The position numbers and the translations under genes were made by a program. From Nitrososphaera viennensis EN76 (GTDB taxonomy: Archaea; Thermoproteota; Nitrososphaeria; Nitrososphaerales; Nitrososphaeraceae), in the NCBI RefSeq assembly GCF_000698785.1, contig NZ_CP007536.1:2220001-2252000 (forward strand): 32,000 bases of DNA. Reading direction: 5' to 3'. Under the pieces are notes generated by a model. The model had not been told where the DNA came from and made no database searches. It saw nothing but the letters and a program-made list of their open reading frames with translations. Shown here piece after piece: positions 15,924 through 31,710 of the stretch (its first letter is position 1; every line of letters begins with the position of its first letter).

Positions 15924-16552
15924 CTGTTCGCCTTTATGTCCCAGCCTCCTGTCACCGGCGCGCCAAGCGAGCCGTCAGGGTTGACAGGATAGTACGTGAA
16001 CTCTATCTTGGCAAAGTTGAGCGAGAAGCTGTCCGTGGGGACTGCTCCTGAACCGCCTCCTTGCTGGTACGACGAGACGAGCACGTCCGTCAGCTTGATC
16101 TGGAGGAACTGCTGGCCCTTTTTGCCGCTCACCTCGCCTGTGAGCACGACCTGCTTGATGTGCTCGCCTGTAGCCGTTGCAAGCATCAGCTTTGGAGACG
16201 ACTTGTCGATATTTTTGGTAAAACTGATGTCCTGGAACGACACCTTTCCCGCGCCTCCACCGCCGCCCGTGCTTGGCGAGCCTGTGTTGGATGCGCCCCA
16301 GCTGAACGATTCGACGTTTATCTCGCCTTTGTGCTTGTCATTTGTTGACTCTCCTTCAATGCCGTCTATCTTTAAAAAGTAGTCGACCGTGGCAGCATCG
16401 GCAGAAGGCATCCCGAGCAGCGCCTCGCTGGCCGGGAGCTTTTGCGATGAAAAAGAAGGTGCCACTGCGACGTACCCTGCAAGAATCGACGCAACAACTG
16501 CAACCGCTACCGCTACTACTGCTGTCATCTGCATCTTGCCTAGGTTTGGCAT
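15914..16552 (-). CDS. hcp: Hcp (type VI secretion tube protein) family homolog with N-terminal hydrophobic extension
   Basis: From residue ~56 the sequence reads DYFLKIDGIEGESTNDKHKGEINVESFSWG...GGGGGAGKVSFQDISFTKNIDKSSPKLMLATATGEHI...LTDVLVSSYQ...SLNFAKIEFTYYP...GWDIKAN. This is collinear with bacterial Hcp1 as I remember it. Residues 9-31 (MTAVVAVAVAVVASILAGYVAVA) look like a signal peptide or anchor. A TATA-like TAGATATA lies at 16572-16579. The internal Met48 (ATG at 16411) is an alternative start that would give a canonical Hcp N-terminus. Confidence 0.9.
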   Translation of the reverse strand: MPNLGKMQMTAVVAVAVAVVASILAGYVAVAPSFSSQKLPASEALLGMPSADAATVDYFLKIDGIEGESTNDKHKGEINVESFSWGASNTGSPSTGGGGGAGKVSFQDISFTKNIDKSSPKLMLATATGEHIKQVVLTGEVSGKKGQQFLQIKLTDVLVSSYQQGGGSGAVPTDSFSLNFAKIEFTYYPVNPDGSLGAPVTGGWDIKANRKA

Positions 16553-16642
16553 GGCGACGGATGCTGGAGAATAGATATACCTTTTCTGAAGCTCGGCTCT
16601 ATAAAATAGCTAAAAAGAAGGAGGGGAGTAGGGGAAGAAGCC

Positions 16643-18904
16643 CTACTTGGGCAGCTCTATCTTTTCTGCTGTTGCCGCGATCCTCGGGATGGACCCAAGG
16701 TCGACGCACGGCACCTGCTCCAGCGCGACCGCCGCGGTGTCGGACGCGCCATAGCCCGTTATGATGCCAAAGCCGTTAGTGTGCTTGGGGTACACCCTCA
16801 GCTCTATCGCAAACGAGCACTTTTGGTGCGCGCCGAGCATCTCCCCAAACGTCTTTTCGGCGGCCTTGGCGTTTGCCGCGTTGAGCGGGCTTGGGATCGG
16901 CGGAACCGTCGAGGGGGCGTTTGTCGTGCCGGTCTCTATCGTCCCGCTTGTGTCGTTGAGCCCGCGCACGAACCACAGGTTGTAGCTGTGCATGAACTTG
17001 TTGACGTGGAACGCATAGAACCGCACAGTGAACTTGTCGCCGGAGCACCCTGTCAAAAAGAGGCAGCTTCCCTCCACAGGCGCGTCGTTCTTGCGCAGCG
17101 CGACAATGTCCCCGTAGCAGGCGACGTTGTCTGCGTGGAAAATATGGACAAGGGCGGCATAGTTTACCGCGTCGGTGGCAGTCTCTGTCGACCAGCGCCT
17201 GAAAGTGAACGGCTTGTCGATCCCTGCTCCCATTGCGCCTGCGGGCTTGATCCTGTTTCCTGCCGCATCAAACACCTCGACTATCACAAGGTGCTTGCCA
17301 TTGTCGTGCAGGGTCGTGTTCCACGACTGGTGGAACTGGAACCAGAGCCACCCGCCGTCCGGCGCGTCGGACTCGTACGGGATGAGGTACAGCCCAGAGT
17401 TACTGCCGACCGCGTTTGGCCCGAGCGCTACTGCCTCCGTCTGCAATTGCGTCCCGACCCACTTCCACCGGCTCCATGCTACAGGATCTGTCAGCACCTG
17501 CGGCACGCCGTCAGGGTCGCCGGAAGAGTTTGCCTTTACCACGCTTACCCTGTAGTATTTCGCGCCTGTGCCCTTCATGCCTTCGTGGAACTTGAGCCTG
17601 AAGCTGAGCGTCTGGCCCCACGGCTGGCCTGTGTAGTTGTTGTTGACAAGGCCGTCGCCGGGGTTTGCCGTCAAGACGCCAAGCTCGCTGTCCTGCACGG
17701 GGCTGACAAGCTTCCAGCTGGGGATGTAGCCGATGTTTTCCAGCATCACAAAGTTCGTGCCCGGGTCGGGGACGTCGCTTCCCGGGTTGCAGGCGCGCCC
17801 CTTCCATGTGCGCAGGTGCGCGTCGTCGGACGCAGTAAAGTAGTCGTTCGTGGTTGAGCCGTCATAGATGTACACCCACTGGTTGTCCTGCCACTGCCTG
17901 ACCTTGTAATAGTAGGTTACCCTGCATCCTGCTCTTACAAACGGCCGCCAGTAGCAAAAGCTGAACTCGCCGTCCTCGTTCACGGGCGTCTCGCCGACCT
18001 TTCTCGTGCTGCATGTGCAAAAGATCGGGTAGAGGTAATAGTGCGCGTCAATGTACGCAAGCCTGTCCTGTTGCGGAAGCGACATCAGCATGTGGTAGTC
18101 TTCTGCCAGCTTTTCAGGCGGGTTGCCTAGCGGTACTTTGGCGCCTGTTGCGCGCAAGAGGCTGGCGGCCTTTTCCACCTGCCTGATTGGCACGGGATCA
18201 GGGCCGGGCCCCGGCCAAGGACCTATGGGCCCGGGATCAGGGTCCGGGATTGGAGGGACGCGCTTTATCAAATCTTTGAGCCTGTCAAGTATGTCGTCGA
18301 TGTCAAAGGGCGGGCGCAGCCTGCAGCAGCATGTCTTTTCATATACTTCGACAACGGCGTTGCATATTGGCGCGCATATGGTAGGCAGCGTCAACGACGG
18401 CGCGATTGCTTTTGATATTTCTGGCCTGAGCGTCAGGGTGTCCGTAAACGTCGTCGACTTTGCAAGAATCTTTGTCGCTGTCTTTGCAACGGCAATGTCT
18501 CCAAGCAGCCATGGCCTTGGCCTGCACCTGTGTACGTCGCCGTGCACACAAACTATGGGCAGAATCCAGTCGCGCCATTTGGGCGTGATAGAGATCACGC
18601 CCGTTCTGGACCACTCGGCGACCTTCTCCCTTGGCCTGAAGGTGACAAGCATTTCCCTTGTCACTTCTTTTTCGTCAATGTCCGGGCCAAAGCCGTAGCC
18701 GCTTCCCTCCTTGATGTTGCGGGCTAGCTCTGAAAGCTGGACCTTGTTTCCCTGGATGGGCCCGACTTTTCTGATAACGCCCTTCTCTACTGCAAAAAGG
18801 GCTACGCGTGGTGCCTGGTCTTTCTCGGTGATTCCGAGGAACCTTAGTTCTAGAATTTTGTCGTTATTGCTGTTGTTGGTAGCAGGTATCCTTGAGGCTG
18901 CCAT
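16643..18904 (-). CDS. large Cys- and Pro-rich hypothetical protein (753 aa)
   Basis: A long GC-rich ORF. ATG at 18904 (MAASRIPATNN...) is preceded by an AT-rich region with TTTATTAAAG at 18924-18933. The track's TTG at 18994 lies in that AT-rich DNA. It contains a CCC triplet, a PPIPDPDPGPIGPWPGPGPDPVPI linker and a beta-rich C-terminal half. No family recognised. Confidence 0.85.
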   Translation of the reverse strand: MAASRIPATNNSNNDKILELRFLGITEKDQAPRVALFAVEKGVIRKVGPIQGNKVQLSELARNIKEGSGYGFGPDIDEKEVTREMLVTFRPREKVAEWSRTGVISITPKWRDWILPIVCVHGDVHRCRPRPWLLGDIAVAKTATKILAKSTTFTDTLTLRPEISKAIAPSLTLPTICAPICNAVVEVYEKTCCCRLRPPFDIDDILDRLKDLIKRVPPIPDPDPGPIGPWPGPGPDPVPIRQVEKAASLLRATGAKVPLGNPPEKLAEDYHMLMSLPQQDRLAYIDAHYYLYPIFCTCSTRKVGETPVNEDGEFSFCYWRPFVRAGCRVTYYYKVRQWQDNQWVYIYDGSTTNDYFTASDDAHLRTWKGRACNPGSDVPDPGTNFVMLENIGYIPSWKLVSPVQDSELGVLTANPGDGLVNNNYTGQPWGQTLSFRLKFHEGMKGTGAKYYRVSVVKANSSGDPDGVPQVLTDPVAWSRWKWVGTQLQTEAVALGPNAVGSNSGLYLIPYESDAPDGGWLWFQFHQSWNTTLHDNGKHLVIVEVFDAAGNRIKPAGAMGAGIDKPFTFRRWSTETATDAVNYAALVHIFHADNVACYGDIVALRKNDAPVEGSCLFLTGCSGDKFTVRFYAFHVNKFMHSYNLWFVRGLNDTSGTIETGTTNAPSTVPPIPSPLNAANAKAAEKTFGEMLGAHQKCSFAIELRVYPKHTNGFGIITGYGASDTAAVALEQVPCVDLGSIPRIAATAEKIELPK

Positions 18905-19161
18905 GTCCTCTTGGAAGATCCCCTTTATTAAAGAATAGTAGATGTAGTCTCTAGTAAATAGTATCTTGCTATGCAAGTACCCGAGATAAGACAATCATGA
19001 CCATAGATCACTTTTAAGTTCTGTAGAATCCTTGGATGTTAGAATCGAGTGTTGACTTTCTGGTGGTTCCTAATTGCGTGAGTAATGTCCCCTCTAGTGG
19101 ACATTTTGACATAGAGTTTGCCTCCATTAGATATAATAGTAACAATCTTCTACTCTCGGGC

Positions 19162-21735: not shown

Positions 21736-22116
21736 CTACTGCTGTTGCCTTGGCTTTTTCAGGAACATCTTGGCCACTTCGGGCAGCGCAAAGGCATAGT
21801 GTATGTGGCTGCAGTCCTTGGACTCGCACAGCCCGCAGTAGAGCGTCCTGTCCTTCAAATAGACTTCCGCTGTCTTGCCTGCCTTTGAGTCGCGGATGAA
21901 CAGTATGTTGTCCTGGTACCCTATCTTTGAGAGGTAGGGCGCGTAGCTCTGCAGGAACCTGTCGCGCTCTATGGCTTCAACGAGCACAGAGTTGATGTAT
22001 TCCTTGGTATTCCAGTGCATTTTTTCTGCAGCTGACTTCATGACCTCGTACGTCTGCTTGAAGATCTCGACCGTTATCACTTCCTTGCCGCCGCGCTTGA
22101 CCATGTACAGTAACAT
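21736..22116 (-). CDS. ribbon-helix-helix (CopG/Arc-like) DNA-binding protein with C-terminal Cys/His cluster; candidate provirus regulator
   Basis: KEVITVEIFKQTYEVMKSAAEKMHWNTKEYINSVLVEAIERD fits a beta-strand/helix/helix RHH pattern, and the C-terminus carries CGLCESKDCSHIH. It is divergent from the viral plus-strand genes. The start is ATG at 22116 or 22104. Confidence 0.7.
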   Translation of the reverse strand: MLLYMVKRGGKEVITVEIFKQTYEVMKSAAEKMHWNTKEYINSVLVEAIERDRFLQSYAPYLSKIGYQDNILFIRDSKAGKTAEVYLKDRTLYCGLCESKDCSHIHYAFALPEVAKMFLKKPRQQQ

Positions 22117-22173
22117 GTTGCGACATGCTTACTTATATAATTTCTGTATGTGGTAACGTGCTATAACATGTTA
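22111..22173. promoter_or_regulatory. divergent promoter/operator region with two TAACATGTT(G/A) palindromic sites and TATA boxes
   Basis: TAACATGTTG at 22111-22120 overlaps the RHH start codon. The perfect palindrome TAACATGTTA lies at 22164-22173. TTATATAA is at 22133-22140 and TTTTAATA at 22185-22192. Confidence 0.5.
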
Positions 22174-22231
22174 CAACATATTCCTTTTAATACCAGAATG
22201 CGACCTGACGGTAGTATTGTCGGCTGAAAGG

Positions 22232-23109
22232 ATGGCTCTTGAAGAGTATGAATATGCCCTGCAGCAGGCGCGCCTTGCACACGGTGAAGTGAAAAAGTGG
22301 ATAATCTATGCAGGCGAGCAGCTGGAAATAGCCGGCGTCCAGAAGGAGAAAATATCCACAAAATTGCGAAATGACCTGCCGGGCGTCTCGGCCGATTACA
22401 TAAGCCAGATCTGTAGCCAGATGGGGTGGACGGACAGGCGTTTTCCCCCGGGGTTGAGAAAACTAAGCCTGAAAATAGTTCCACTCCTTCTGCTTCTTCA
22501 GAGCAGCCGCAACAAGTCCACAATGATGATAATAACAAGGCAGCAGCGGAGGAGGAGCCTGACAAGGCAAGGTGCAGCAAGGAAAACCAGCCCTATATCG
22601 ACCACCTGCAGAGAAAGATCGAGTTTCTGCAGGACGTGCAAAAGAAGCTCCGCGACAGGCCATTTCTGTCCCTGCTTGAGAAAAAGCAGTACGACGAGTA
22701 CATCATGCTTGCAGACAGGGCGGAAAAGCTTGCGCGGGAGGCCTGGGATGCAAGGCAGACCATACCTGTTGCCACGCAGTTTTACCTTGCGCAGATAGTG
22801 GCGACCTGTACAATCAAGCACGGCGCAAGCGAGTACGTTTCAAAGGTCAAGGACCTTTTTGGGCTGACGAGCAAGCAGGTCACCAAGACGCTCAAGGGAG
22901 TAGTCCGCGACGTGCACTGCCTCTACGAGCCGACAAACAGGGCAGAGGCCCTGATGGACGGCTTTTACGGCAGGCCATGCGAAAAGTGCGGCAACTGGCG
23001 GGTGAAATGGGAAAACGGCATGTGCCATTGCTTCCACTGCGACAGCGACTACCGCGCAAAAGCCGAGAGGCTGCCGCTGGCAAGGGAACAGGGCGAGTGG
23101 TCCAACTAG
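22232..23109 (+). CDS. TerS-like DNA-binding protein (N-terminal HTH, C-terminal 4-Cys ribbon), readable only with a -1 frameshift at 22447-22453
   Basis: The upstream frame reads MALEEYEY...KISTKLRNDLPGVSADYISQICSQMGWTDRRFPPG (HTH-like). The protein-like sequence then continues in the -1 frame (GVEKTKPENSS...CEKCGNWRVKWENGMCHCFHCDSDY) to the TAG at 23107-23109. Its position directly upstream of TerL suggests a small terminase. Track ORFs 22217..22798 and 22426..23109. Confidence 0.6.
22447..22453 (+). promoter_or_regulatory. X_XXY_YYZ slippery heptamer C_CCG_GGG within a T4C5G4 run
   Basis: In the upstream frame the codons are cgt ttt ccC CCG GGG. Tandem -1 slippage (CCG to CCC, GGG to GGG) lands exactly in the downstream frame (next codon gtt = V of GVEKTK). 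Confidence 0.4.
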
Positions 23110-23118
23110 CTCTTTTGG
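23107..23118 (+). promoter_or_regulatory. degenerate copy of provirus gene-boundary motif (TAGCTCTTTTGG)
   Basis: It embeds the TerS-like stop codon and lies 20 nt before the TerL ATG at 23127. It lacks the TT of the consensus. Confidence 0.35.
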
Positions 23119-23126
23119 TTTGCAAA

Positions 23127-24497
23127 ATGCCATCAAAATCTGAGGTACAGGATGATAATTCTAAAATACAGGCCCTGAAGGGCAAGCCATTCTGGATCTG
23201 GAGCAAGAAAAAGCATGCAAAAAAATCCAAAGACTGCTGTTGCTTTAACCACATTGTCGGCCTGCCCGTCAAAAACGGCAGGGCCATGCCTATGTTTGAC
23301 TATGAGAAAAAGATCCACGACCTGCTTGCAAAAAAGGGAAGAAAAGAGAAACAGAAGGACAAGCACCTGTGGGTGAAAAAAGCCACAGGGCTTGGGGTGA
23401 CTGAACTCCTGCTGAGGTACATGGCCTGGCTGTGCTACCGTGACGATTCGTGCAGGGGCGCGCAGATGTGCATCGTCACCGGCCCGAACAAGGAGCTTGC
23501 CAAGGGGCTCATAACCCGGCTAAAGGAGATCTGCAAGGACGTTGAAAAGCTGGAGTCAAAAGAGACGGTGGTCGTCCTGAACGGCTGCAGGATAGAGGCT
23601 TTTCCGTCGCACCACCTCGACGCGATGCGCGCCCTTGCCAGGCCGGCGTTCATACTCCTTGACGAGGCCGACTTTTTCCCGCCAAAAGAGCAGAAAAACG
23701 CCCGCGACGTCGCAGAGCGCTACATAGCCAAGAGCGACCCGTACATAGTATTGGTGAGCACGCCCAACATGCCCGGCGGCCTGTACGAGAGCATAGAAAA
23801 GGAGGCAGAAGCGCAGTGCATCTACCACAGGCTCCACCTTGATTACAAGGCCGGGCTGAACAAGATCTACACAAGAGCCGAGATTGAAAAGGCGCGCAAG
23901 TCGCCAAGCTTTGAAAGAGAGTATAACTTGAAGTACGGCTACGGCACAGGCAACATTTTTCCCTACCAGCTTGTGGACGCCTGCGTCATGGAATATGACC
24001 CTGCGCTGCAAAAGGGCGCATCGGACAGGGTGCTTGCCGTGGACCCTGCCTACGGTTCCAGCAAGTTTGCCTTGGTAGGCATTGAGCGGCTGGACGAAAT
24101 GCTGTACGTCAAGGAGGCAAGGCAGTACGAGCGCCCGTCTCCTGCCGCCATGCTCGAGGTGGTTGCCGAGTTTGCCCGCCAGTACCCGACTGTGCTCGTA
24201 GACTCGGCGCATCCGGGGCTAATCAGGGACTTGCAGGAAAAAGGGGTGGACGCACAGCCGGTAAACTTTGCAAAAAATCTTGCCGACATGACAAGTGCGG
24301 CGGCGCGGGTCGTAACGGAAAAGAAGGTAAGGATACACCCTGCCTTTACGGATCTGCAGTACCAGCTAAAGGCGGCAGTGTACAATGATAAAGGCCACCC
24401 GGACAAGCGCAAACTGTCGTTTGACCTTGGCGATTGTATGTTGATGCTTGCCTATTATTGCCTCCGCCAAGATGGATTATTCATGGCCGAGATCTGA
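23127..24497 (+). CDS. terL: terminase large subunit
   Basis: Walker-A-like KKATGLGVTE, Walker B AFILLDEADFF, coupling motif LVSTPN, and nuclease-domain acidic motifs VLAVDPAYGSSKFALVG and VLVDSAHPG. ATG at 23127; the track ORF start at 22977 is an off-frame overlap with the upstream gene. Confidence 0.9.
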   Translation: MPSKSEVQDDNSKIQALKGKPFWIWSKKKHAKKSKDCCCFNHIVGLPVKNGRAMPMFDYEKKIHDLLAKKGRKEKQKDKHLWVKKATGLGVTELLLRYMAWLCYRDDSCRGAQMCIVTGPNKELAKGLITRLKEICKDVEKLESKETVVVLNGCRIEAFPSHHLDAMRALARPAFILLDEADFFPPKEQKNARDVAERYIAKSDPYIVLVSTPNMPGGLYESIEKEAEAQCIYHRLHLDYKAGLNKIYTRAEIEKARKSPSFEREYNLKYGYGTGNIFPYQLVDACVMEYDPALQKGASDRVLAVDPAYGSSKFALVGIERLDEMLYVKEARQYERPSPAAMLEVVAEFARQYPTVLVDSAHPGLIRDLQEKGVDAQPVNFAKNLADMTSAAARVVTEKKVRIHPAFTDLQYQLKAAVYNDKGHPDKRKLSFDLGDCMLMLAYYCLRQDGLFMAEI

Positions 24498-24527
24498 CCC
24501 GTTTTCTTGCATATCATGCAGGATCAA

Positions 24528-24538
24528 TAGTTCTCTTT
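24528..24538 (+). promoter_or_regulatory. provirus gene-boundary motif TAGTTCTCTTT
   Basis: It lies 38 nt before the ATG at 24566. Confidence 0.6.
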
Positions 24539-24565
24539 CAGGACAGCCTTCTAATCCTCTCCAGC

Positions 24566-24784
24566 ATGGAAATCACGATTGAACAGCCAATATCTGTACA
24601 GCATGAAGCAGACTTGAAGGCAGCGATCCAGGACAAGCTCAAGGAGTGGGACCTGCGCGAGCCGGCCGTGTCCATCAAGGTGCGCAGCGCGCTTACGGAA
24701 CAGGAAAAGACTGCGCTGCTTGTATTGATAAGGAACTTTTACGTGTCGCACGGGTATCCTAACCCTACAATGGGCACAAGCTAG
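24566..24784 (+). CDS. small provirus protein (72 aa)
   Basis: MEITIEQPISVQHEADLKAAIQDKL.... The ATG at 24566 is at the motif-defined distance. The track ORF begins upstream at 24434. Confidence 0.65.
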   Translation: MEITIEQPISVQHEADLKAAIQDKLKEWDLREPAVSIKVRSALTEQEKTALLVLIRNFYVSHGYPNPTMGTS

Positions 24785-24890
24785 CAGCGTGACAAGCATC
24801 CGTACGCCACAATAATAATAACAACCGGACGGGCCAGGGCGCTGCATCATGCACCCGATTAATCCTTAAGCGCTTGGCCGAGACCTGATC

Positions 24891-24903
24891 AGTTCTCTTT
24901 TTT
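24891..24903 (+). promoter_or_regulatory. provirus gene-boundary motif (TC)AGTTCTCTTTTTT
   Basis: The equivalent motif start (24890) lies 35 nt before the ATG at 24925. It is followed by GCCTGCA, as in the next copy. Confidence 0.6.
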
Positions 24904-24924
24904 CCGCCTGCACAACCTCAATCC

Positions 24925-25260
24925 ATGCTCAAGCTAGTGCTTACGCAAGGGTACACATTTGCCGCAAACGACTATGGCCGCCCGTACGCCTTCAGGATAT
25001 ACAACGAGGACGACACGCCGTTTGACGCGACCACGTACGGCCTGCCAACAATCAAGGTCTTTGGCATTTCTGGCAACGCGGCCATACAACCGCTGGCAGG
25101 CAGCTGGACCGCACAGAACCAGGGAGCAGGCGCGTTTTCCTTTGCGCAGTCAAACTGCCTGACTGCATCCGGCCCGCACTACATTGAAGTCCAGCTGGAA
25201 AAGCCCGGCGTGGCGACAAGCACCGGGCGGCGCAGGATAACAGTCACGCCAAGCCCATAG
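24925..25260 (+). CDS. small beta-rich provirus structural protein (111 aa)
   Basis: An ORF between TerL and portal, with beta-sandwich-like composition (YAFRIYNEDDTPFDATTYGLPTIKVFGISG...). The function is inferred only from context. Confidence 0.7.
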   Translation: MLKLVLTQGYTFAANDYGRPYAFRIYNEDDTPFDATTYGLPTIKVFGISGNAAIQPLAGSWTAQNQGAGAFSFAQSNCLTASGPHYIEVQLEKPGVATSTGRRRITVTPSP

Positions 25261-25270
25261 TTCTCTTTTC
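25258..25270 (+). promoter_or_regulatory. provirus gene-boundary motif TAGTTCTCTTTTC
   Basis: Its TAG is the stop of ORF 24925..25260. It lies 35 nt before the portal GTG at 25293 and is followed by GCCTGCA. Confidence 0.6.
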
Positions 25271-25292
25271 TTTTTGCCTGCATTGAAGATGC

Positions 25293-26705
25293 GTGAACCT
25301 GCGTTTCTGGCGGCCAAAGCAAGAGGTCTATGGCGTCACGCTTTCAGAGCCGAGTACTAACTCGTCGTCCCAGGTCTCTGACTATTCGCAGTACCAGCTG
25401 TACGTCAGGCCCGAGGTCGACTTTCAGACGTGCTACGAATACTACCGCACAATAGGCAAGGTGCAGAACGCCGTCGAGTCGTACGTCGCCGAGATCCTGT
25501 CGCGGGACTGGTACTTTGAGGGCGCGCAGGAAGGCGTGCAGGCGTGCGAAGAGTGGGAGGACCGGTTCAACCTCTCGCGCATCATCGAATACATTGTCCG
25601 CGACTGGCTCGTATGCGGAAATTCCATCATCGGCATCTCTGACTGGCAGCCCGTGCAAATATCGTCGATAGCAGGCGTAAGGCGCAGCCCGTACGGGATT
25701 GCAGAGCAGTTCGTGCAGGTAGTCAACGGCCGGGAGGTGCCTCTTGACGCGTCGCGCTTTATCCACACGCAGTACATCGAGGTAAACCGCGAGGCGTGGG
25801 GCATCGGCATGTTCCACTCGCTCCTGACAACGTTTGACTATGGCAGCAGGAAAAGGTCGCTTCCGCACCTGGAGATCTACCGGCGGCAGATACAGCTTTT
25901 CTACAAGATACTGGAAAGGTACGGCTCGCCGGTGACCGTGTGGTTCTTTGAGAACGTGGCCAAGGCCGAGTTTGACCGGCAGGTCGAGGAGCTGCGGGCG
26001 CTGGAGCCGGGCGACAGGCGCATACTTTCAAAAAAGGTCGAGATAGCGACAGAGACTGTCGACGCGCGGGGCAACCTCATCAACGCGACGTCGCCGGTGA
26101 TAAACCAGGAAATCGAGGCAGGGTTGCAGACGTCTGCGAACCGGCTGATAACGCAGCCGAGCGCGATGGCAGATGCCAGAATAGGATCAGAGTACGATGA
26201 CTCGAAAACTACTGCGATCATGGAAAAGATCAGGCGCGTAATGAATGTCTTGATAATTCCAAAGATAACGTTAGCAAGAGTGGAGTTCAAGTGGGGCAAA
26301 AAAGACAACTTTGAATTTGATTTCAATCAGTTATTGCAGGCCAAGAGCGCCGGATTTGTTTCTTCAGAAGAAGGCAGGGCGATCCTGCAGTCTGTTGGCT
26401 GGAAACTGGATGACAATCTTTTCAACGCACAGCAGCAATTACAAAAGCAGGAAGACTTTCGTTTTTTAAATGAAAGAGTGCGGCATATAATTTGCAGCAC
26501 TCTTCAGGAATTCAATCCATACCACGATGAACGCGGCCGTTTTGCTAGTGCTACAGGCGCCACTAATTTCTCTGTCGTAGCAACAAAAAGACCAAGAAAT
26601 TCAAAAGTCAACATAAATGAGCCCATTATACAATCTGAAACACCTACTGAGCAACACAGAATTAGAGCAAGAAAAAGTGATACAAAACTTTCCCAACAAG
26701 ATTAG
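25293..26705 (+). CDS. portal protein (by position and size) with AT-rich C-terminal extension containing NPYHDERGRF
   Basis: A 470-aa ORF downstream of TerL and upstream of protease-MCP. The C-terminal third (from ~26170) is AT-rich. The last ~30 codons overlap the RelA/SpoT-like ORF in another frame. Confidence 0.7.
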   Translation: MNLRFWRPKQEVYGVTLSEPSTNSSSQVSDYSQYQLYVRPEVDFQTCYEYYRTIGKVQNAVESYVAEILSRDWYFEGAQEGVQACEEWEDRFNLSRIIEYIVRDWLVCGNSIIGISDWQPVQISSIAGVRRSPYGIAEQFVQVVNGREVPLDASRFIHTQYIEVNREAWGIGMFHSLLTTFDYGSRKRSLPHLEIYRRQIQLFYKILERYGSPVTVWFFENVAKAEFDRQVEELRALEPGDRRILSKKVEIATETVDARGNLINATSPVINQEIEAGLQTSANRLITQPSAMADARIGSEYDDSKTTAIMEKIRRVMNVLIIPKITLARVEFKWGKKDNFEFDFNQLLQAKSAGFVSSEEGRAILQSVGWKLDDNLFNAQQQLQKQEDFRFLNERVRHIICSTLQEFNPYHDERGRFASATGATNFSVVATKRPRNSKVNINEPIIQSETPTEQHRIRARKSDTKLSQQD

Positions 26706-27309
26706 TGAAGAAACTGCTACAGAGCAGATCTACAAAGCAGAAAAGATAAGAGAGCAGTTTGTAAATTTAGCCGACAGGCAAATTGATGATATTTCCGCAG
26801 CATATCCTGATGCAGAGGTGACTGCTAGAATAAAAGATAGTTCGAGTATGGTTGAAAAAGTTTTGCGCAAGCCGAATCAATACAACGATGTATCGCAATT
26901 ACAAGATACACTAGGTGTTAGAGTAGTTACTAAAGATCTGGATGAACTTGAAACGATCACATCAGATCTAACAACTAGATACGAAGTTGTATCTGAGGTT
27001 AGTTATGTTGATGTACCAAAGCTAGATGGCTATAGAGGCTATCATCTAAATGTAAAAGACAAATACACAGGTCTTGTGAATGAGATACAGATAAGAACAA
27101 AGAATCAAGACAAGTGGGCGGATCTTATGCACAATAGAGTTTACAAACCGTCAAAGGAATTAGAAGAGAGAGTCAGAATGAATCAAGATTCAATATACAA
27201 ATATGCAAATGAACTTTCAGACTATTATTACAGACTTGATTCAGGCGAGAAAAAAGTTAAAAAACCTGAAATATCTAAAATAATTAGAGACATACTAGGA
27301 GATGACTAA
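26617..27309 (+). CDS. RelA/SpoT-homolog synthetase-domain protein (small alarmone synthetase / toxSAS-like)
   Basis: Ordered signature blocks are RIKDSSSMVEKVLRK, DTLGVRVV, DGYRGYHLNVK and NEIQIRTKNQDKWADLMHNRVYK (R-x-K-x3-S-x3-K; D-x2-G-x-R; G-Y-R-x-x-H; E-x-Q-x-R-T-x5-W-A-x3-H-x3-Y-K). 230 aa, single domain. The ATG at 26617 is directly preceded by an in-frame TAA. Confidence 0.9.
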   Translation: MSPLYNLKHLLSNTELEQEKVIQNFPNKISEETATEQIYKAEKIREQFVNLADRQIDDISAAYPDAEVTARIKDSSSMVEKVLRKPNQYNDVSQLQDTLGVRVVTKDLDELETITSDLTTRYEVVSEVSYVDVPKLDGYRGYHLNVKDKYTGLVNEIQIRTKNQDKWADLMHNRVYKPSKELEERVRMNQDSIYKYANELSDYYYRLDSGEKKVKKPEISKIIRDILGDD

Positions 27310-27520
27310 CACGGATAATTTCATCACAAAGATGTTAGATGATGTTGACAGGCATACACCCAAAACAGGCTATAATCTTGTTGTGATAGATGATTTCGAG
27401 CCTTTTGGTGAGCAGCTCTATACCTTAGGACACTACGAGACCTATGAAGCAGCTCTTGCAGCCCAAGAACAACTTAGTGGCAACACTGTAATTTATCCAC
27501 ACAAGCGCGAAAAAGAATGA
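27302..27520 (+). CDS. small acidic protein translationally coupled to the RSH gene (candidate antitoxin or immunity protein)
   Basis: Its ATG at 27302 overlaps the RSH stop (gATGACTAA, an 8-nt overlap). 72 aa: MTNTDNFITKMLDDVDRH...LGHYETYEAALAAQEQLSGNTVIYPHKREKE. Confidence 0.7.
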   Translation: MTNTDNFITKMLDDVDRHTPKTGYNLVVIDDFEPFGEQLYTLGHYETYEAALAAQEQLSGNTVIYPHKREKE

Positions 27521-27729
27521 TTGAAAAGCATCCTAGAAATATTATCTATGCTAATAAGCCTGACTGCCCTGAAATAGTACGTAAAACGATCGGATGTATG
27601 GAGGAAGACTGACACATGGTTGAAGAAACTTGGCTTGACAAGAAGGGCATTTCGACACGTATGATGAAGCTTTAGAGGCTCAGAAAAAAATACAAAGGCA
27701 ATTCGGTAATTTATGGACCTGATGATTGA
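27517..27729 (+). pseudogene. decayed tandem duplicate of the 72-aa gene
   Basis: Its ATG at 27517 overlaps the preceding TGA (aATGA). The reading is interrupted by a TGA at 27610-27612 and by frame changes, one beside an A7 run. Pieced across frames it reads ...VEETWLDKKGHFDTYDEALEAQKKIQ.GNSVIYGPDD, against LGHYETYEAALAAQEQLSGNTVIY in the intact copy. Confidence 0.5.
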
Positions 27730-27758
27730 ATAACCTTTGGCCCGTAGAACTCGTACAG

Positions 27759-27772
27759 TAGTTCTCTTTTTT
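27759..27772 (+). promoter_or_regulatory. provirus gene-boundary motif TAGTTCTCTTTTTT
   Basis: It lies 34 nt before the protease-MCP GTG at 27793. Confidence 0.6.
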
Positions 27773-27792
27773 CTAGCCTCATAATCTCATGC

Positions 27793-29523
27793 GTGAAACC
27801 TCAAGTCAAGATCGAGTTTGTCACATCTGCCAAGGAAAAGAAAAGGATTGCCGGCATACTTGCAATCCCACGCATTTCAAGAAACGGCAATCTGTACCTG
27901 CCCGAAGAACTGGAAAAAGCGCACGGCAGAACGGTCCCCGTACTATGGAACCACGAGGGCAGCCCAAAGAGCGCCAGCGAGCCTGTACGCCAGTCCGACG
28001 TCATTGGCGCAATGCGCCTTTTCTGGGACTCTGACCTGATGCAATTAAAGTACGAGGCCGAGGTGGACCGCGACCTGCCGGAAATCCCACTGCATACCTC
28101 GCTGGGCGCGTTTTTCGAGCGCGAGGACCATGTCTGCGGAAACACGCGCTGCTACTCTGTTCCCCGCGGCCTGCGCTTTGTGGAAGCGTCGCTAACCCCT
28201 ACGCCAGGCATCCCGGAAACAACAGTCAAGATCCTAGAGAATTTTGCGTGCAGGCAATGCCGGCTTAGTTCTCTTACAAGCGAAGCATCCAACCGGGGTA
28301 TCATGTCTTCTTCAAACAACGATTCAGGTGGCGGACAGGATACGTCGTGCATCACAAGCAAGCAGTTCCAGGACGGCATCAAGAGCCTGATAGACGCAAT
28401 GGGCAGGCGCTTTGCAGACAAGCAGCAGCTGCAAACAGAGGCAGCGGCAAGGGCGCCTTCGAGCATGGTCGACGACTCGAACACGCGCGCAAGGCAGGAG
28501 TCGTACAACCGCGTGGTAGAGTTTTTCCAGCGCGTCAAGGAAAACCCAAAGGATGTCTCGTTCCCGGCAGTCTCGTGGAACATTGACAAGAACGAGTACC
28601 TTGGAAGGTGGGGCTACAACATCAGCCCGCGCGCCAAGAAAGAGGCAGTGACGATAACCGCCGGCGACATGGGGCAGGTCTTTTCAAAGCAGATCCTAGT
28701 CGTCCCGGGCGGCAGGATGAAGATTCCTGTGAGGCAGTACTGCAACTTTACTGAAATCCCTGCAGGAAACGACAGGGCACATTTCTACACGATAGGCGCA
28801 TTTGACTTTGGCACGATAACCGAGGGGACAGAGCCCACAAACGTGTCGCAGACCGTGAGCAAAAAGACGGCCACGCCTTCAATACGCGGGGCGGTCCAGC
28901 GCGTCGGCTACTCGCAGGTAGAGAACGCGCCTTTCGGCCTCGTGGATGCGATAAACGAGGCGATGGTCCTTGCCTCGATAGATGATGAAGCTTCCGACCT
29001 GCTGTCGACAACGTACGACGCCATAACGCCCACCAACTGGGTCCGCGCAGACACCGGAGCTGCGATAACCTTGGACGATGTTGCAAGCCTGACGTTCAAG
29101 CGCGAGGGGTTGCTTGCGGCAAAGCGCCTGATAGCGCAGCAGGGCCACGACGTGAGCCCCGGCAACCTCGTGCTTTTCATGCACCCAAAGGCGTACCAGG
29201 AGCTCCTGCTTGACACCAACCTGAACAACTTTTACCAGTACGCCCGGCCGGAGATAACTGCGACCGGCATACTTGAGCAGATATATGGAGTCGACATCGT
29301 GATCGCCGATCAGGTAAAGGCACAGGACAACACCACAAACGACACGTACCGCAACGTTCTTGCGGTCAAGGGCGTGGCCTTTGGCATGGCCTCTGCAAGG
29401 AACGTGACTATGGAGGCCCAGCGCAGGAACGAGACCCAGCAGGTGGTGCTGTCAGGGACGCACAGGGTAAAATCGGTAGTCATTGACGAGACTGCAAGCT
29501 GCCGCATATCGTCGGCTCAGTAA
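27793..29523 (+). CDS. prohead protease - scaffold-like linker - HK97-fold major capsid protein fusion
   Basis: The N-terminal ~150 aa fit the HK97-type prohead protease (RTVPVLWNHEG...VIG; TSLGAFFE...RFVEASLTPTPGIPETTV). They are followed by a Gly/Ser linker and the helical QFQDGIKSLIDAMGRRFADKQQLQTEAAA. The C-terminal ~330 aa are MCP-like in size and position. GTG start at the motif-defined distance. Confidence 0.8.
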   Translation: MKPQVKIEFVTSAKEKKRIAGILAIPRISRNGNLYLPEELEKAHGRTVPVLWNHEGSPKSASEPVRQSDVIGAMRLFWDSDLMQLKYEAEVDRDLPEIPLHTSLGAFFEREDHVCGNTRCYSVPRGLRFVEASLTPTPGIPETTVKILENFACRQCRLSSLTSEASNRGIMSSSNNDSGGGQDTSCITSKQFQDGIKSLIDAMGRRFADKQQLQTEAAARAPSSMVDDSNTRARQESYNRVVEFFQRVKENPKDVSFPAVSWNIDKNEYLGRWGYNISPRAKKEAVTITAGDMGQVFSKQILVVPGGRMKIPVRQYCNFTEIPAGNDRAHFYTIGAFDFGTITEGTEPTNVSQTVSKKTATPSIRGAVQRVGYSQVENAPFGLVDAINEAMVLASIDDEASDLLSTTYDAITPTNWVRADTGAAITLDDVASLTFKREGLLAAKRLIAQQGHDVSPGNLVLFMHPKAYQELLLDTNLNNFYQYARPEITATGILEQIYGVDIVIADQVKAQDNTTNDTYRNVLAVKGVAFGMASARNVTMEAQRRNETQQVVLSGTHRVKSVVIDETASCRISSAQ

Positions 29524-29539
29524 TAGGTGAGAGACCACT

Positions 29540-29665
29540 GTGGCCGACCTCAAGTCCATCTTTGACAAATACATCCGCGAGGGCGAGTCCGGGAGGAGCA
29601 ACACCAACGAGCTCCTCAAGGCCATCGTCGACGAGATCGAGGCGCTCAAGTCAAAAAGGCGCTAA
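29540..29665 (+). CDS. small helical provirus protein (41 aa), not in ORF track
   Basis: GTG at 29540 gives MADLKSIFDKYIREGESGRSNTNELLKAIVDEIEALKSKRR, with a TAA at 29663-29665 embedded in the next boundary motif. It starts 17 nt after the MCP stop. The composition is protein-like and in the GC-rich style of neighbouring genes. Confidence 0.45.
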   Translation: MADLKSIFDKYIREGESGRSNTNELLKAIVDEIEALKSKRR

Positions 29666-29675
29666 TTCTCTTTTT
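29663..29675 (+). promoter_or_regulatory. provirus gene-boundary motif variant TAATTCTCTTTTT
   Basis: It lies 37 nt before the ATG at 29700 and is followed by GTGCAAG. Confidence 0.5.
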
Positions 29676-29699
29676 CATTTTTTGTGCAAGGTTTTTTCC

Positions 29700-30059
29700 A
29701 TGACCTACTATGAAATCATGCGACTTCGAGAGATAACGCTTGGATCGCCTTCGGACACGTCGCAGGACATGCTGCTAAACGCCAAGGGCGCGCAAGCAGA
29801 TTCTCAGATAGATGACGAGCTGTACATCGTCGCAAACAGGTATTCAAAGTTGCAGAGCCTGCCGGCGCTTCCGCTTGCCGGCACGATGCTGACGCAGTCG
29901 ATAAGGGACGCGGCTACAGACAGGGCTGCTTCGCTCTTTTTCCTGGTGCAGCGCCAGCCCGCGATGGCAGACAAGTACGCGCAGAGCAGCGAGAGGGCGG
30001 TGCAGGCGTACGAGATGCGGCTTGACAGCGAGGGCGAGATCTACAGCGACAGCACCTAG
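29700..30059 (+). CDS. provirus structural protein (119 aa; head completion or connector candidate by position)
   Basis: MTYYEIMRLREITLGSPSDTSQDML.... The track ORF start at 29562 is an off-frame N-terminal extension (S/R/T-rich). Confidence 0.7.
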   Translation: MTYYEIMRLREITLGSPSDTSQDMLLNAKGAQADSQIDDELYIVANRYSKLQSLPALPLAGTMLTQSIRDAATDRAASLFFLVQRQPAMADKYAQSSERAVQAYEMRLDSEGEIYSDST

Positions 30060-30065
30060 TTCTAT
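30057..30065 (+). promoter_or_regulatory. truncated boundary motif TAGTTCTAT
   Basis: Its TAG is the stop of the previous gene, and the next ATG at 30066 follows after only 9 nt. Confidence 0.35.
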
Positions 30066-30365
30066 ATGTGTAAAAAAGATGGTGAGTATTTGGGAGCATT
30101 GGACCACATCAACAGAGAAGAGTTCCAGAATTTCCGCCAGGATGCCGGCGAGCACTTCAAGATGCTGCACGAGTGCGACAGGCGCATAGAGCGCAAGATA
30201 GACGAGCTTGCCGCCCTGCTGGAGCCCGTGCTTGACGAGCACGCCCAGAGCATGGAAAGCAGGCGCGGCAGGCGTGAGGTCAAGATGCTTGCGATAGGCG
30301 CCGCCCTTGGCGCGTTCTTTAGCGCAGTGACAGCCGCGATGCTGCTTCTTTTCCAGCTGGGCTAG
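30066..30365 (+). CDS. tail-anchored membrane protein (coiled-coil plus C-terminal TM)
   Basis: The helical region IERKIDELAALLEPVLDEH is followed by the TM segment MLAIGAALGAFFSAVTAAMLLLF at the C-terminus. Confidence 0.7.
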   Translation: MCKKDGEYLGALDHINREEFQNFRQDAGEHFKMLHECDRRIERKIDELAALLEPVLDEHAQSMESRRGRREVKMLAIGAALGAFFSAVTAAMLLLFQLG

Positions 30366-30373
30366 TTCTTTTT
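30363..30373 (+). promoter_or_regulatory. provirus gene-boundary motif variant TAGTTCTTTTT
   Basis: Its TAG is the stop of the previous gene. It lies 35 nt before the ATG at 30398 and is followed by CTGCAAG. Confidence 0.55.
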
Positions 30374-30397
30374 GCCCTTTTTCTGCAAGAGACTTTC

Positions 30398-30607
30398 ATG
30401 AGCGATCCATCCGTAGAAAAAGTGAGCCTGAACGCCAAGGAGATAATCCTTGCAATAGTGGTGTCTGCCGGGGCAGTCACGGCCCTGGTCTCTGCCGGCG
30501 CGCTCTGGACCGGACACGCAGAGATAGCGGAAAAGGCGGGCCTTGCGTTTGTGAGCGGCATCGTGGGCTTTGGCGCGGGCATCGTGACTGCGCTGTGGGG
30601 CCGCTAG
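30398..30607 (+). CDS. small two-TM membrane protein (holin-like topology)
   Basis: The two hydrophobic segments are IILAIVVSAGAVTALVSAGALW and AGLAFVSGIVGFGAGIVTALW. 69 aa. Confidence 0.7.
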   Translation: MSDPSVEKVSLNAKEIILAIVVSAGAVTALVSAGALWTGHAEIAEKAGLAFVSGIVGFGAGIVTALWGR

Positions 30608-30616
30608 TTCTTTTCT
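30605..30616 (+). promoter_or_regulatory. provirus gene-boundary motif variant TAGTTCTTTTCT
   Basis: Its TAG is the stop of the previous gene. It lies 36 nt before the GTG at 30641 (27 nt before the track's TTG at 30632). Confidence 0.55.
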
Positions 30617-30640
30617 GGTTTTCTTTCATTTTTGTTGTTT

Positions 30641-31120
30641 GTGGGAGCAGCAGTAGAACATCTGTGCTTTACATTCGATGTCTGCGTAGTTGGTTTTGGA
30701 CATTCTTCCTTAAGATGCATTGAATGTGGTCTTGTACTTGAAACTGAAAACTGTAAATGGGTTGCAATTGACGGCAGGCCAATATGCATAAAACATCATC
30801 ATGATATCACATACACAGACGTTGAGAAAAACTATTCCAAGTTTATTGCAGGTACAACCAAACGTAATTTTACATTTGATCCGGAAACTGGAAAGGCATA
30901 CGATGCAACTGATCCTGAATGCGCAAAGAAATTTTACGAAATATATGGAGACCGTAAAAACAACGTCGCCTTAATTGCCATAACTAATAATAGATCTAAT
31001 AGTCTGAATGATACTACAAAAAGAGCATTTCATAAACTGCAAAAAGAACAAAAAGATCGTTCGTTGGGAGGTGGATATCTGATGGAAACAAAACATACAC
31101 CGATATATCCTTCGCTGTAG
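30641..31120 (+). CDS. hypothetical protein in AT-rich insert (Cys/His cluster CIECG...C...CIKHHH)
   Basis: Track ORF 30632..31120. GTG at 30641 is chosen from the conserved motif spacing. The sequence turns AT-rich from ~30690. No family recognised. Confidence 0.55.
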   Translation: MGAAVEHLCFTFDVCVVGFGHSSLRCIECGLVLETENCKWVAIDGRPICIKHHHDITYTDVEKNYSKFIAGTTKRNFTFDPETGKAYDATDPECAKKFYEIYGDRKNNVALIAITNNRSNSLNDTTKRAFHKLQKEQKDRSLGGGYLMETKHTPIYPSL

Positions 31121-31216
31121 CAGGACAAAACGACAGCGAGCTTGGAATGCTGTTAAAGCGCTATAAGCAAGAAGCAATATTGATTATCGGCAAGAACGGA
31201 AAAATAAGGTGGTTAT

Positions 31217-31408
31217 ATGAAGAGTGAACAAAAAAGACTGGGCGGGCTTAAGTTCAAGAACCCTTGGCCAACAAGAGTTGAAGGAGATGTGCTTCCTATA
31301 GCTGTCATCTATCGTCTAATGTTCTTGGGATTCTCTGACAGAGATCTTTCACCTGAAGCTAGAGAAGCTCTTTACGCATATACTGCTACATTTAGCGACA
31401 CACAATAG
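31217..31408 (+). CDS. hypothetical small protein in AT-rich insert
   Basis: A 63-aa ORF with an ATG start. No motif recognised. Confidence 0.4.
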   Translation: MKSEQKRLGGLKFKNPWPTRVEGDVLPIAVIYRLMFLGFSDRDLSPEAREALYAYTATFSDTQ

Positions 31409-31451
31409 AAAAAGGAATAATGACGACTGGTAACAACAACGACGTGTATAT

Positions 31452-31459
31452 TAGTTCTC
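31452..31459 (+). promoter_or_regulatory. provirus gene-boundary motif (short form TAGTTCTC)
   Basis: It lies 35 nt before the ATG at 31487 and marks the return from AT-rich to GC-rich sequence. Confidence 0.5.
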
Positions 31460-31486
31460 AATTTCTCCACCTTGTAACTTTATTGC

Positions 31487-31669
31487 ATGTCGTCATCATC
31501 ACCGCCCGTCTGTCCTTGGGACAACGAAAAACTGCAAGCACTTGAAGGCCGGTTCCAGTTCGTCTGCGAAAAGCACGGCGAAAGGGGCCGGTTCTTCTGG
31601 GACGTCGTGCTAAACGGCGCAGGCACGCTGGGCTCGTTCCGCTGGACAGACTACCCGCCTTCGGACTAG
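31487..31669 (+). CDS. small provirus protein (60 aa)
   Basis: MSSSSPPVCPWDNEKLQALEGRFQFVCEKHGERGRFFWDV.... It is GC-rich and its ATG is at the motif-defined distance. Confidence 0.6.
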   Translation: MSSSSPPVCPWDNEKLQALEGRFQFVCEKHGERGRFFWDVVLNGAGTLGSFRWTDYPPSD

Positions 31670-31675
31670 TAGTGT

Positions 31676-31688
31676 TAGTTCTCTTTTC
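31676..31688 (+). promoter_or_regulatory. provirus gene-boundary motif TAGTTCTCTTTTC
   Basis: It lies 35 nt before the ATG at 31711. Confidence 0.6.
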
Positions 31689-31710
31689 CCTTTTCTTTCT
31701 TTTTGGTTTC

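Follow-up and report, generated by a model that had tools for sequence, protein, structure and literature searches.

A recurring 11-nt motif at a set distance before late genes of the Nitrososphaera viennensis provirus Nvie-Pro1 as a candidate non-TATA promoter

The provirus locus

The window analysed here comprises 32,000 nucleotides of DNA from Nitrososphaera viennensis EN76, an ammonia-oxidising archaeon of soil (contig NZ_CP007536.1, positions 2,220,001 to 2,252,000 of the forward strand; positions below are counted within the window). From approximately 22 kb onward, the window corresponds to the head-tail provirus Nvie-Pro1 (record FR725450.1), and its last 17 kb are identical to the N. 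viennensis chromosome CP103305.1. The main provirus genes, assigned by profile searches, include those for the large terminase TerL (23127-24497), a Mu-type portal (Portal_Mu, 25293-26705), and a protease-capsid fusion in which the capsid domain was detected (27793-29523), all on the plus strand; a RelA/SpoT-domain gene sits in an AT-rich insert. The fusion of the protease to the major capsid protein in Nvie-Pro1 has been described (PMC6563490). Many genes of this provirus are preceded, at a distance close to 35 nt, by the 11-mer T-A-R-T-T-C-T-C-T-T-(T/A), i.e., TA(G/A)TTCTCTTT, which is probably a virus-specific core promoter. To our knowledge, nothing is known about gene control in viruses of ammonia-oxidising archaea. 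The literature covered here yielded neither mapped transcription starts nor a promoter description for Nitrososphaera, and no mention of the motif or of Nvie-Pro1 promoters was found in that literature, which omits the first description of 2011.

Copies of the motif

Ten strong copies of TA(G/A)TTCTCTT(T) lie on the plus strand between 24.5 and 31.7 kb, and the minus strand has none. Start codons were taken as those picked by independent gene callers in public assemblies of the same DNA, and the distances from the first base of the motif to the start, for nine strong copies (matching TA(G/A)TTCT(C/T)TT) in order from 24528 to 31676, are 38, 35, 35, 34, 37, 35, 36, 35, and 35 nt; the spacing of 34-38 nt that the initial annotation had given for nine copies is thus confirmed. 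In particular, TAGTTCTCTTTC (24528..24539; 18.7 bits) is located 38 nt before ATG 24566 of a 72-aa gene, and CAGTTCTCTTTT (24890..24901), a CAG variant, is located 35 nt before ATG 24925 of a 111-aa gene; this variant recurs with equal spacing at the syntenic place in the related contig L001. An identical sequence, TAGTTCTCTTTT, is found at 25258..25269, 35 nt before GTG 25293 of the portal gene, where the TAG within it ends the 111-aa gene, at 27759..27770, 34 nt before GTG 27793 of the protease-capsid gene and at the right edge of AT-rich insert 1, and at 31676..31687, 35 nt before ATG 31711 of a 159-aa gene that runs past the window end. The remaining intergenic copies are TAATTCTCTTTT (29663..29674), 37 nt before ATG 29700 of a 119-aa gene, with its TAA as the stop codon of a 41-aa gene; TAGTTCTTTTTG (30363..30374), 35 nt before ATG 30398 of a 69-aa gene, with its TAG as the stop codon of the upstream gene; TAGTTCTTTTCT (30605..30616), 36 nt before GTG 30641 of a 159-aa gene in AT-rich insert 2, whose left edge it marks; and TAGTTCTCAATT (31452..31463), 35 nt before ATG 31487 of a 60-aa gene, at the right edge of the same insert. 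The tenth strong copy, TAGTTCTCTTAC (28266..28277), lies inside the protease-capsid open reading frame (ORF), 37 nt before the in-frame ATG 28303.

The internal copy was not among the eleven plus-strand copies listed in the initial annotation and is the twelfth overall. All eleven exist at their coordinates; nine are strong and two, at 23107 and 30057, are degenerate. The copy TAGTTCTATATG (30057..30068, plus strand) is weak and doubtful: it scores 10.7 bits, has no counterpart in L001, and is followed by ATG 30066 at +9, TTG 30090 at +33, and TTG 30099 at +42, the gene callers differing on the start. The candidate TAGCTCTTTTGG (23107..23118, plus strand) was rejected, as it stands 20 nt before TerL ATG 23127, scores below 9 bits with the position weight matrix (PWM), and TerL genes of relatives lack the motif. 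Six ORFs end within a copy (at 23109, 25260, 29665, 30059, 30365, and 30607), just as had been noted; as the element directly adjoins the ORF before it, the TAG or TAA of the motif often serves at the same time to stop that ORF.

Enrichment and strand bias over the provirus, which had been proposed as a check, bear the motif out. The heptamer TAGTTCT occurs nine times on the plus strand of the 7.2 kb between 24.5 and 31.7 kb versus three times on the plus and once on the minus strand of the remaining 25 kb. PWM matches of at least 12 bits number ten in 23-32 kb, none of them on the minus strand, versus a mean of 0.12 and a maximum of two in 300 Markov simulations. Moreover, an independent PWM, for which only 47 sites in seven other contigs served as the training set, finds these ten window sites again, none on the minus strand, and two marginal matches in the other 22 kb. 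Six further copies lie in the provirus beyond the window end, including one before the tail tube gene, which brings the whole provirus to 16 plus-strand copies and no strong minus-strand copies. The motif is carried by 15-16 of the 28 called provirus genes, i.e., about half, and its presence before 'almost every' gene had therefore been overstated.

Distance to the start codon and signals around it

The set distance is not peculiar to N. viennensis. In five contigs, 38 called genes have the motif, at 35 nt in 18 and at 34 nt in seven of them, and among the 47 sites outside N. viennensis, 20 are found at 35 nt and 20 at 34, 36, or 37 nt. With the start codon as a proxy for the transcription start site, the motif spans -35 to -25 (mode, 35 nt) and TTCTCTTT spans -32 to -25. 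Where gaps between genes are long (68-445 nt), the motif is still located 34-38 nt from the downstream start and far from the upstream stop, as seen in the window with the stop at 24784 and the copy at 24890, and again with 27520 and 27759. The genes with a motif mostly (27/38) lie 31-41 nt past the previous gene, whereas genes without it mostly overlap or abut their predecessor.

The two groups of genes also differ in Shine-Dalgarno (SD)-like sequences, which were found at 2 of 38 motif genes versus 24 of 84 other genes (Fisher p = 0.0035). Within the window, the motif-less genes at 29540, 27302, and 31217 have GGTGA, GGAG, and GGTGG, respectively, just upstream. The GGTGA (29526..29530, plus strand) lies 9 nt before GTG 29540, and this gene is probably internal to an operon because it lacks the motif and begins 16 nt past the capsid gene; the GGTGG (31208..31212, plus strand) lies 4 nt before ATG 31217, inside insert 2. 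Among uncoupled viral genes, the motif was found at 36 and an A/T-only box at one.

Information content is limited to motif positions 1-11, with nothing conserved upstream or in the spacer between motif and start. Positions 1-3 are T-A-R with an invariant A, C6 is invariant as well, and C8 is present in 79% of sites; the better-conserved part is TARTTCTC, not the T-run. Runs of five or more T (T5) occur in 21 of 63 motif-to-start segments, which is far above chance, and in none of the eight internal copies. At the start itself, 73% of sites have a pyrimidine as base -1 (C in 51%) and 82% have a purine as base +1, a step that resembles archaeal initiator sites. The spacers are G-poor, and seven motif-to-start segments are predicted to fold no better than shuffles, with z between -0.9 and +1.1. 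Neither hairpin terminators nor promoters of bacterial type exceed chance in 22-32 kb. A second element, TGCA, had been seen before several starts; it is found nine times in 63 clade spacers versus 8.1 expected, and its presence in 5 of 16 Nvie-Pro1 spacers is not conserved in relatives, so that this part of the initial annotation falls away.

Host start geometry was assessed with a distance histogram of A/T 8-mers, a cruder positional A/T profile being too noisy. In Nitrososphaera(ceae) DNA, A/T-only 8-mers peak with their first base 27-35 nt before the first ATG of long ORFs; thus, leaderless geometry seems to be the host norm. Clear boxes at -31/-30 are present in the host part of the window (TTTATATA, TTTTTATT, and TTAATTAT), and TTCTCTTT falls exactly in the slot of the host A/T-only boxes.

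A preference is also visible downstream of the start. Many motif-linked genes in the window, L001, and L032-L035 open with ATG-TCN (Met-Ser) or GTG-AA, and position +5 is C in 48% of motif-linked sites; this bias may be an initiator or leaderless-translation preference or may reflect N-terminal processing. The portal and capsid genes of the window open with a common string, ATGCGTGAA (25289-25297 and 27789-27797), in which the GTG serves the long ORF and an ATG four bases upstream is out of frame. The portal genes of L001, L033, and L034 also open with GTGAAC, without this ATG.

Conservation in related viruses

A comparison with related proviruses, likewise proposed in the initial annotation, revealed that the motif and its spacing of approximately 35 nt are kept in L001, L029, and L031-L035, the spacers of which cannot be aligned. 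L001 comes from a Nitrososphaera metagenome-assembled genome and was chosen by TerL similarity (TerL 56% and capsid 83% identical to those of the window); it has the motif at syntenic genes, with the 35-nt spacing kept and the spacer sequences different. Other relatives were chosen by their capsid through a protein search and contig look-up, and the motif precedes many called genes by approximately 35 nt in each of L033, L034, L031, L029, L032, and L035, the capsids of which are 72%, 66%, 47%, 38%, 37%, and 25% identical to that of the window, respectively. Both copies in L029 lack the T-run, yet the spacing to ATG is kept. In L036, the capsid protein of which is 58% identical across two thirds of its length, there are only a few copies; these are looser and lie at 41-43 nt from called starts. 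The motif loses none of its uniformity between close relatives and viruses at 25% capsid identity.

The association with starts was tested by asking whether a PWM match is followed at 33-41 nt by the start of an ORF of at least 40 aa. This was the case for 57 of 64 matches on the coding strand of the clade contigs versus 2 of 21 on the opposite strand, and for 12 of 190 matches in a null set of 16 unrelated Nitrososphaera loci with more distant TerL genes. The motif is not present in L002-L017, relatives chosen by TerL (42-70% identity), which are therefore used as a negative control and not as support. Scans with the capsid alignment found nothing in IMG/VR and only two short contigs in JGI metagenomes.

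In L035 (GC 0.415), two motif classes, TAGTTCTCTT and AACTTCTCTT, occur in different parts of the genome and have TTCTCTT in common; the two sets contrasted were the copies at 288, 1094, 2964, 3500, and 12920 versus those at 6265, 6772, 8949, 12047, and 15344. AAC-TTCTCTT is mostly found at packaging-side genes and TAG-TTCTCTT in structural genes. The AAC and TAG copies may represent temporal promoter classes, and their split between genome parts hints that the 5' triplet of the motif, in the position of the B-recognition element (BRE), carries class information.

The copy inside the protease-capsid gene

The copy at 28266 is out of frame as a stop codon and has no T-run. An internal copy is kept in eight capsid genes, near the end of the protease domain and in the same codon phase; seven of these genes are a single continuous protease-capsid ORF, and that of L034 is broken by a frameshift. 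All eight have an in-frame ATG at +37 or +40 from the internal copy, at the end of the conserved protease domain. When the eight regions are aligned, TA-TTCTC-TA is the sole invariant DNA block and the flanks cannot be aligned. Moreover, the synonymous codons TCT and CTT are fixed although the encoded peptide varies (SSLT, NSLS, NSHT, and others), and the T-run is lacking in 8 of 8 copies.

It is proposed that a nested gene, 28303..29523 (plus strand), begins at the in-frame ATG 28303, 37 nt past the internal motif. Translation from this ATG would give a 406-aa capsid protein, composed of a scaffold-like N-terminal part and an HK97-type capsid domain, without the 170-aa protease domain that completes the 576-aa full-length form; we take 406 aa to be the size of an HK97-type capsid protein with an N-terminal scaffold-like domain. 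The internal copy thus probably lets the virus make capsid protein without protease, and the nested gene, as predicted, would explain how a protease-capsid fusion fits capsid stoichiometry. A related arrangement has been shown experimentally in HFTV1, a haloarchaeal tailed virus, where a scaffold is produced from an in-frame internal start in the prohead protease gene, apparently by internal translation initiation and without a step in RNA coverage; the authors liken this nested gene to those of lambda and HSV-1 (bioRxiv 10.64898/2026.09.13.751334).

In L034 (9814-10403), the 169-aa protease part, which begins at ATG 9849, is not in frame with the capsid part. This contig is of low coverage and the break is likely an assembly frameshift; its upstream and internal motif copies are both still present.

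A putative promoter for leaderless late transcripts

Taken together, the observed enrichment and strand bias, the spacing, the SD dichotomy, and the conservation both across viruses and at the internal site suggest, with a probability of roughly 65%, that the motif is a virus-specific, non-TATA core promoter for leaderless late transcripts, that of the nested capsid gene included. It would act on DNA as a promoter that marks late genes, those for packaging, head, and tail, in a clade of head-tail (pro)viruses of Nitrososphaera. At -35 to -25, the motif would fill the slot of the BRE 3' end and the TATA box, and a pre-initiation complex consisting of TBP, TFB, and RNA polymerase, possibly with a dedicated viral or paralogous host factor, would measure approximately 35 bp, so that transcription would begin at the purine (A or G) that opens the start codon, or a few bases from it. 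Such mRNAs would be leaderless and would not need an SD sequence, whereas motif-less genes would be internal to transcription units and translated via an SD sequence or an overlap of start and stop codons. Many intergenic copies are followed by a T-rich tract, which might also end upstream transcripts, and the internal copy, free of a T-run, would drive the nested in-frame gene and yield capsid protein in excess over protease-capsid. The uniformity of the motif down to 25% capsid identity suggests a specific reader, either a conserved host TBP/TFB paralogue or a viral factor. Of the readings considered, this is the one best supported by the comparative evidence, i.e., a spacing that is kept while spacers are not, the lack of SD sequences, the pyrimidine-purine step, and the host A/T boxes. 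The virus-specific promoter for leaderless mRNAs that the initial annotation proposed thus finds partial, comparative support, and no TATA box stands in the slot to which its T-run had been assigned.

Several points weigh against a promoter. The case is built from sequence comparison, and binding by TBP is not assured because there is no canonical TATA box and C is invariant or nearly so at positions 6 and 8; instead of an A/T-rich 8-bp box, TTCTCTTT fills the slot. Spacings of 37-40 nt, among them those of all internal copies, imply short leaders or flexible start selection. The motif-linked called starts include eight TTG and eight GTG, codons that are poor for leaderless translation in the systems studied so far. 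Confinement to viral late genes holds for the DNA examined, which is less than the whole host genome. Moreover, the N. viennensis provirus, with a frameshifted gene, may be inactive, and a signal acting in RNA stays alive because in HFTV1, the only archaeal tailed virus for which there are data, the nested scaffold arises by internal translation initiation.

Such an RNA-level signal, in which UARUUCUCUUU in a polycistronic RNA would direct SD-independent (re-)initiation approximately 35 nt downstream or mark processing into leaderless cistrons, is rather unlikely. It would agree with the location of all copies on the coding strand, the SD sequences missing from motif genes, the pairing of the internal copy with an in-frame AUG, and spacers that are G-poor and unstructured, as for open ribosome-loading regions. 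However, rRNA-mRNA contacts usually lie closer than 35 nt upstream, and a motif at that distance, with a spacer that is not conserved, is beyond their usual range; it is not complementary to the anti-SD sequence, promoter geometry accounts for its distance and for the pyrimidine-purine step, which agree with where the host A/T boxes lie, and genes past non-coding gaps of 140-445 nt bear the same motif. The nested scaffold of HFTV1 speaks for the RNA level, since internal translation initiation yields it and RNA-seq coverage shows no step there (bioRxiv 10.64898/2026.09.13.751334). It is also unlikely that the copies are asymmetric, stoperator-like operators for a provirus repressor or late activator that would silence or switch on the entire late region, with the core promoter elsewhere or overlapping. 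In favour of such sites, the copies are numerous, all point one way, and lie in short gaps between genes of an integrated provirus, the 11-mer is sharply bounded, far better conserved than ordinary TATA boxes and not TATA-like, and RHH-like and HTH-like genes are present at the left end of the provirus; however, the control region there (22117-22216) has canonical A/T boxes and another palindrome (TAACATGTTA) and no motif, and stoperators would not be expected at a fixed 35 nt or paired with an ATG within a gene. This explanation partly overlaps the promoter reading because an activator site within a promoter is a promoter element.

That the motif is only a terminator, the stop codon and T-run forming an archaeal oligo-T 3'-end signal and the spacing following from compact packing, is very improbable. 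Six window copies do overlap the upstream stop codon, and the frequency of T5 runs exceeds chance, but when that stop is distant (gaps of 68-445 nt), the motif stays with the downstream start, two thirds of copies have no T5 run and the conserved part is TARTTCTC, the internal copies and both L029 copies are spaced to ATG without a T-run, and hairpin terminators are not above chance. Of the combined stop/restart boundary proposed initially, a secondary role of the T-run is thus possible, whereas the motif tracks the downstream start and T5 is confined to 21 of 63 segments and 0 of 8 internal copies. Scarcely credible is a recombination joint alone, in which the repeats would be short homology blocks that serve cassette exchange and do nothing for expression. 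The copies at 30605 and 31452 exactly bracket insert 2 (30610-31450), which is missing from L001, and each additional gene unit brings a copy with it; insert 1, however, has its left edge (~26200) inside the portal ORF, where there is no motif, and the strand bias, the 35-nt spacing, the SD dichotomy, and the internal copy would be left unexplained. The module-exchange joint of the initial annotation therefore stands for insert 2 and not for the left edge of insert 1, and cassette exchange is better viewed as a by-product of repeated promoters.

A further-reaching version of the promoter reading is offered tentatively and is, as a whole, less likely than not: the motif might constitute a separate class of archaeal core promoter, non-TATA and read only with a dedicated initiation factor that would switch on late genes in the manner of a sigma factor, with the triplet (TAG versus AAC in L035) selecting the temporal class and an internal promoter setting the capsid-to-protease stoichiometry. 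This factor could be a co-opted TFB/TBP paralogue, of which Nitrososphaerales have many, or a conserved virus-encoded factor. If a special TBP/TFB combination does read the motif, it would provide a natural system for archaeal promoter-class switching. The motif is a concrete, testable cis-element from which transcription units can be predicted across an entire clade of head-tail viruses of soil Thaumarchaeota; it also corrects start-codon calls (e.g., portal starts in L033) and provides a sequence tag by which such viruses and their late genes can be recognised in metagenomes.

Comparison with known systems

Repeated virus-specific promoter motifs (T4, T7, mimivirus, SIRV) and nested protease genes are already known; new here are this non-TATA element, the host phylum, the virus group, the conservation, and the use inside a protease-capsid fusion. 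BRE/TATA core promoters of leaderless genes are known from Sulfolobus, Haloferax, and other archaea, and their core element has its centre some 26-30 bp before the transcription start. The motif is similar to these in its location when the start codon stands in for the transcription start (approximately -35 to -24), the pyrimidine-purine step, the lack of an SD sequence, and host A/T boxes at an equal distance, but it is a pyrimidine tract with fixed C (TTCTCTT), is far more uniform than cellular TATA boxes, and is confined to viral late genes in the DNA examined. When a purine-rich BRE was sought, T-A-R was found at positions 1-3, with no information upstream, and the second class of L035 has AAC. 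The promoter consensus of the rudiviruses SIRV1 and SIRV2, reportedly described by Kessler et al. in 2004, is said to be a TATA-like box followed by GTC. There, as here, an archaeal virus tags many genes with its own variant of the host promoter architecture; however, SIRV keeps the TATA box and adds a trinucleotide, whereas here the TATA slot itself is replaced, and the host phylum (Thaumarchaeota/Nitrososphaerota) and virus type (head-tail) differ.

Gene-by-gene viral promoters include the T4 late promoter TATAAATA, T7 class III promoters, and the mimivirus AAAATTGA octamer, and the motif resembles them in being short and uniform and in recurring, always the same way round and equally spaced from the start, ahead of much of the viral gene set. 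In contrast, those promoters are read by phage sigma-like factors or viral RNA polymerases. As no archaeal virus is known to encode an RNA polymerase (bioRxiv 10.64898/2026.09.13.751334), host polymerase with a modified factor set is implied. The internal start has its parallels in nested genes. It bears the same 11-mer as the intergenic starts, which, as in UL26.5, suggests an internal promoter over a ribosome start alone. Nested protease/scaffold genes are exemplified by lambda C/Nu3 and HSV-1 UL26/UL26.5. HFTV1 gp17/gp17.5 are a further pair (bioRxiv 10.64898/2026.09.13.751334). In all of these, and by prediction here, an in-frame start inside the prohead protease ORF allows the abundant C-terminal assembly protein to be made separately from the full-length protease form; because the protease is fused to the capsid in Nvie-Pro1, the C-terminal product would be the major capsid protein, unlike in lambda, HSV-1, and HFTV1.

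Stoperators of mycobacteriophage L5 (Cluster A) are numerous asymmetric 13-nt repeats in short intergenic regions, oriented with transcription and matching the repressor operator of the early promoter, and the start-associated sequences of Cluster K phages, which take in the ribosome-binding site, are only 3-8 nt away from the start. The motif shares with stoperators its many asymmetric copies in one orientation (16 plus, no strong minus) in a temperate-type element; it differs in its fixed distance of 35 nt, which also separates it from the Cluster K sequences (3-8 nt), and in its absence from the regulatory region 22117-22216, which has TTATATAA, TTTTAATA, and TAACATGTTA. The 'mobile regulatory cassettes' (PeSL) of T4-type phages, according to what is reported of Arbiol et al. 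2010, consist of a promoter and a stem-loop flanking variable ORFs that were acquired horizontally. Here too, repeated promoter-type elements flank variable ORFs, with insert 2 between two copies, but the predictions give no stable structure, and clean bracketing is seen for one insert of the two.

AT-rich inserts

Insert 2 contains a 159-aa and a 63-aa gene without a family match; in L001, where it is missing, one motif and the MSETWKV gene come immediately after the 69-aa gene. Repeated promoters may aid cassette gain, a suggestion for which this insert is the one example. Insert 1 (26200-27750; GC 0.28-0.45) lies between portal and capsid, with its right edge at a motif and its left edge in the portal ORF, the last ~170 codons of which are AT-rich too. 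It encodes the RelA/SpoT-domain protein (26617-27309), matched at E 4e-20 by Pfam and at E 1e-21 by PADLOC as candidate defence system PDC-S33. A 72-aa ORF (27302-27520) with a GGAG SD sequence overlaps this gene, a layout that resembles a toxic alarmone-synthetase toxin/antitoxin or a defence cargo gene. L024 and L025, which were compared for strain variation at the inserts, are identical DNA in which only gene calls differ, and are thus uninformative.

The left end of the provirus and its neighbourhood

An RHH-like gene (21736-22116, minus strand) lies at the left end and is separated from the gene upstream of TerL by a divergent control region (22117-22216), which is probably the operator of a provirus switch. 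This region contains the canonical A/T box TTATATAA at 22133, the perfect palindrome TAACATGTTA (22164-22173) within a longer inverted repeat, and the A/T-only box TTTTAATA (22185..22192, plus strand), 32 nt before TTG 22217; a PWM scan found no motif copy in it. The distance from TTTTAATA to TTG 22217 is a host-type promoter geometry useful for comparison with the motif. Pfam and PADLOC searches of the small provirus proteins did not find a DNA-binding family.

The gene that starts at TTG 22217, directly upstream of TerL (22217-23109), is in two frames in N. viennensis, with the frameshift at a T4C5G4 run (22439-22453). Its approximately 30 homologues are all intact (274-294 aa); one of them, L033:103-993, has 64% and 68% identity to the two halves of the split gene. 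The provirus copy is thus a pseudogene or requires a frameshift, and because of it Nvie-Pro1 may be defective. The conserved protein was considered as a candidate reader of the motif and modelled from an intact homologue with a 25-sequence alignment (mean pLDDT 63, pTM 0.30). The predicted fold comprises a helical N-terminal domain, long helices, and a zinc ribbon at the C-terminus; no PDB structure was matched under E = 0.5 with Foldseek, and a profile search of PDB sequences gave no match. The protein may simply be the small terminase subunit.

On the minus strand adjoining the provirus (15914-18994), a 212-aa gene of the tube-like T6SS_HCP family is accompanied by a 777-aa gene without known function, and the two may be remnants of another tailed element or of a contractile-injection-like locus.

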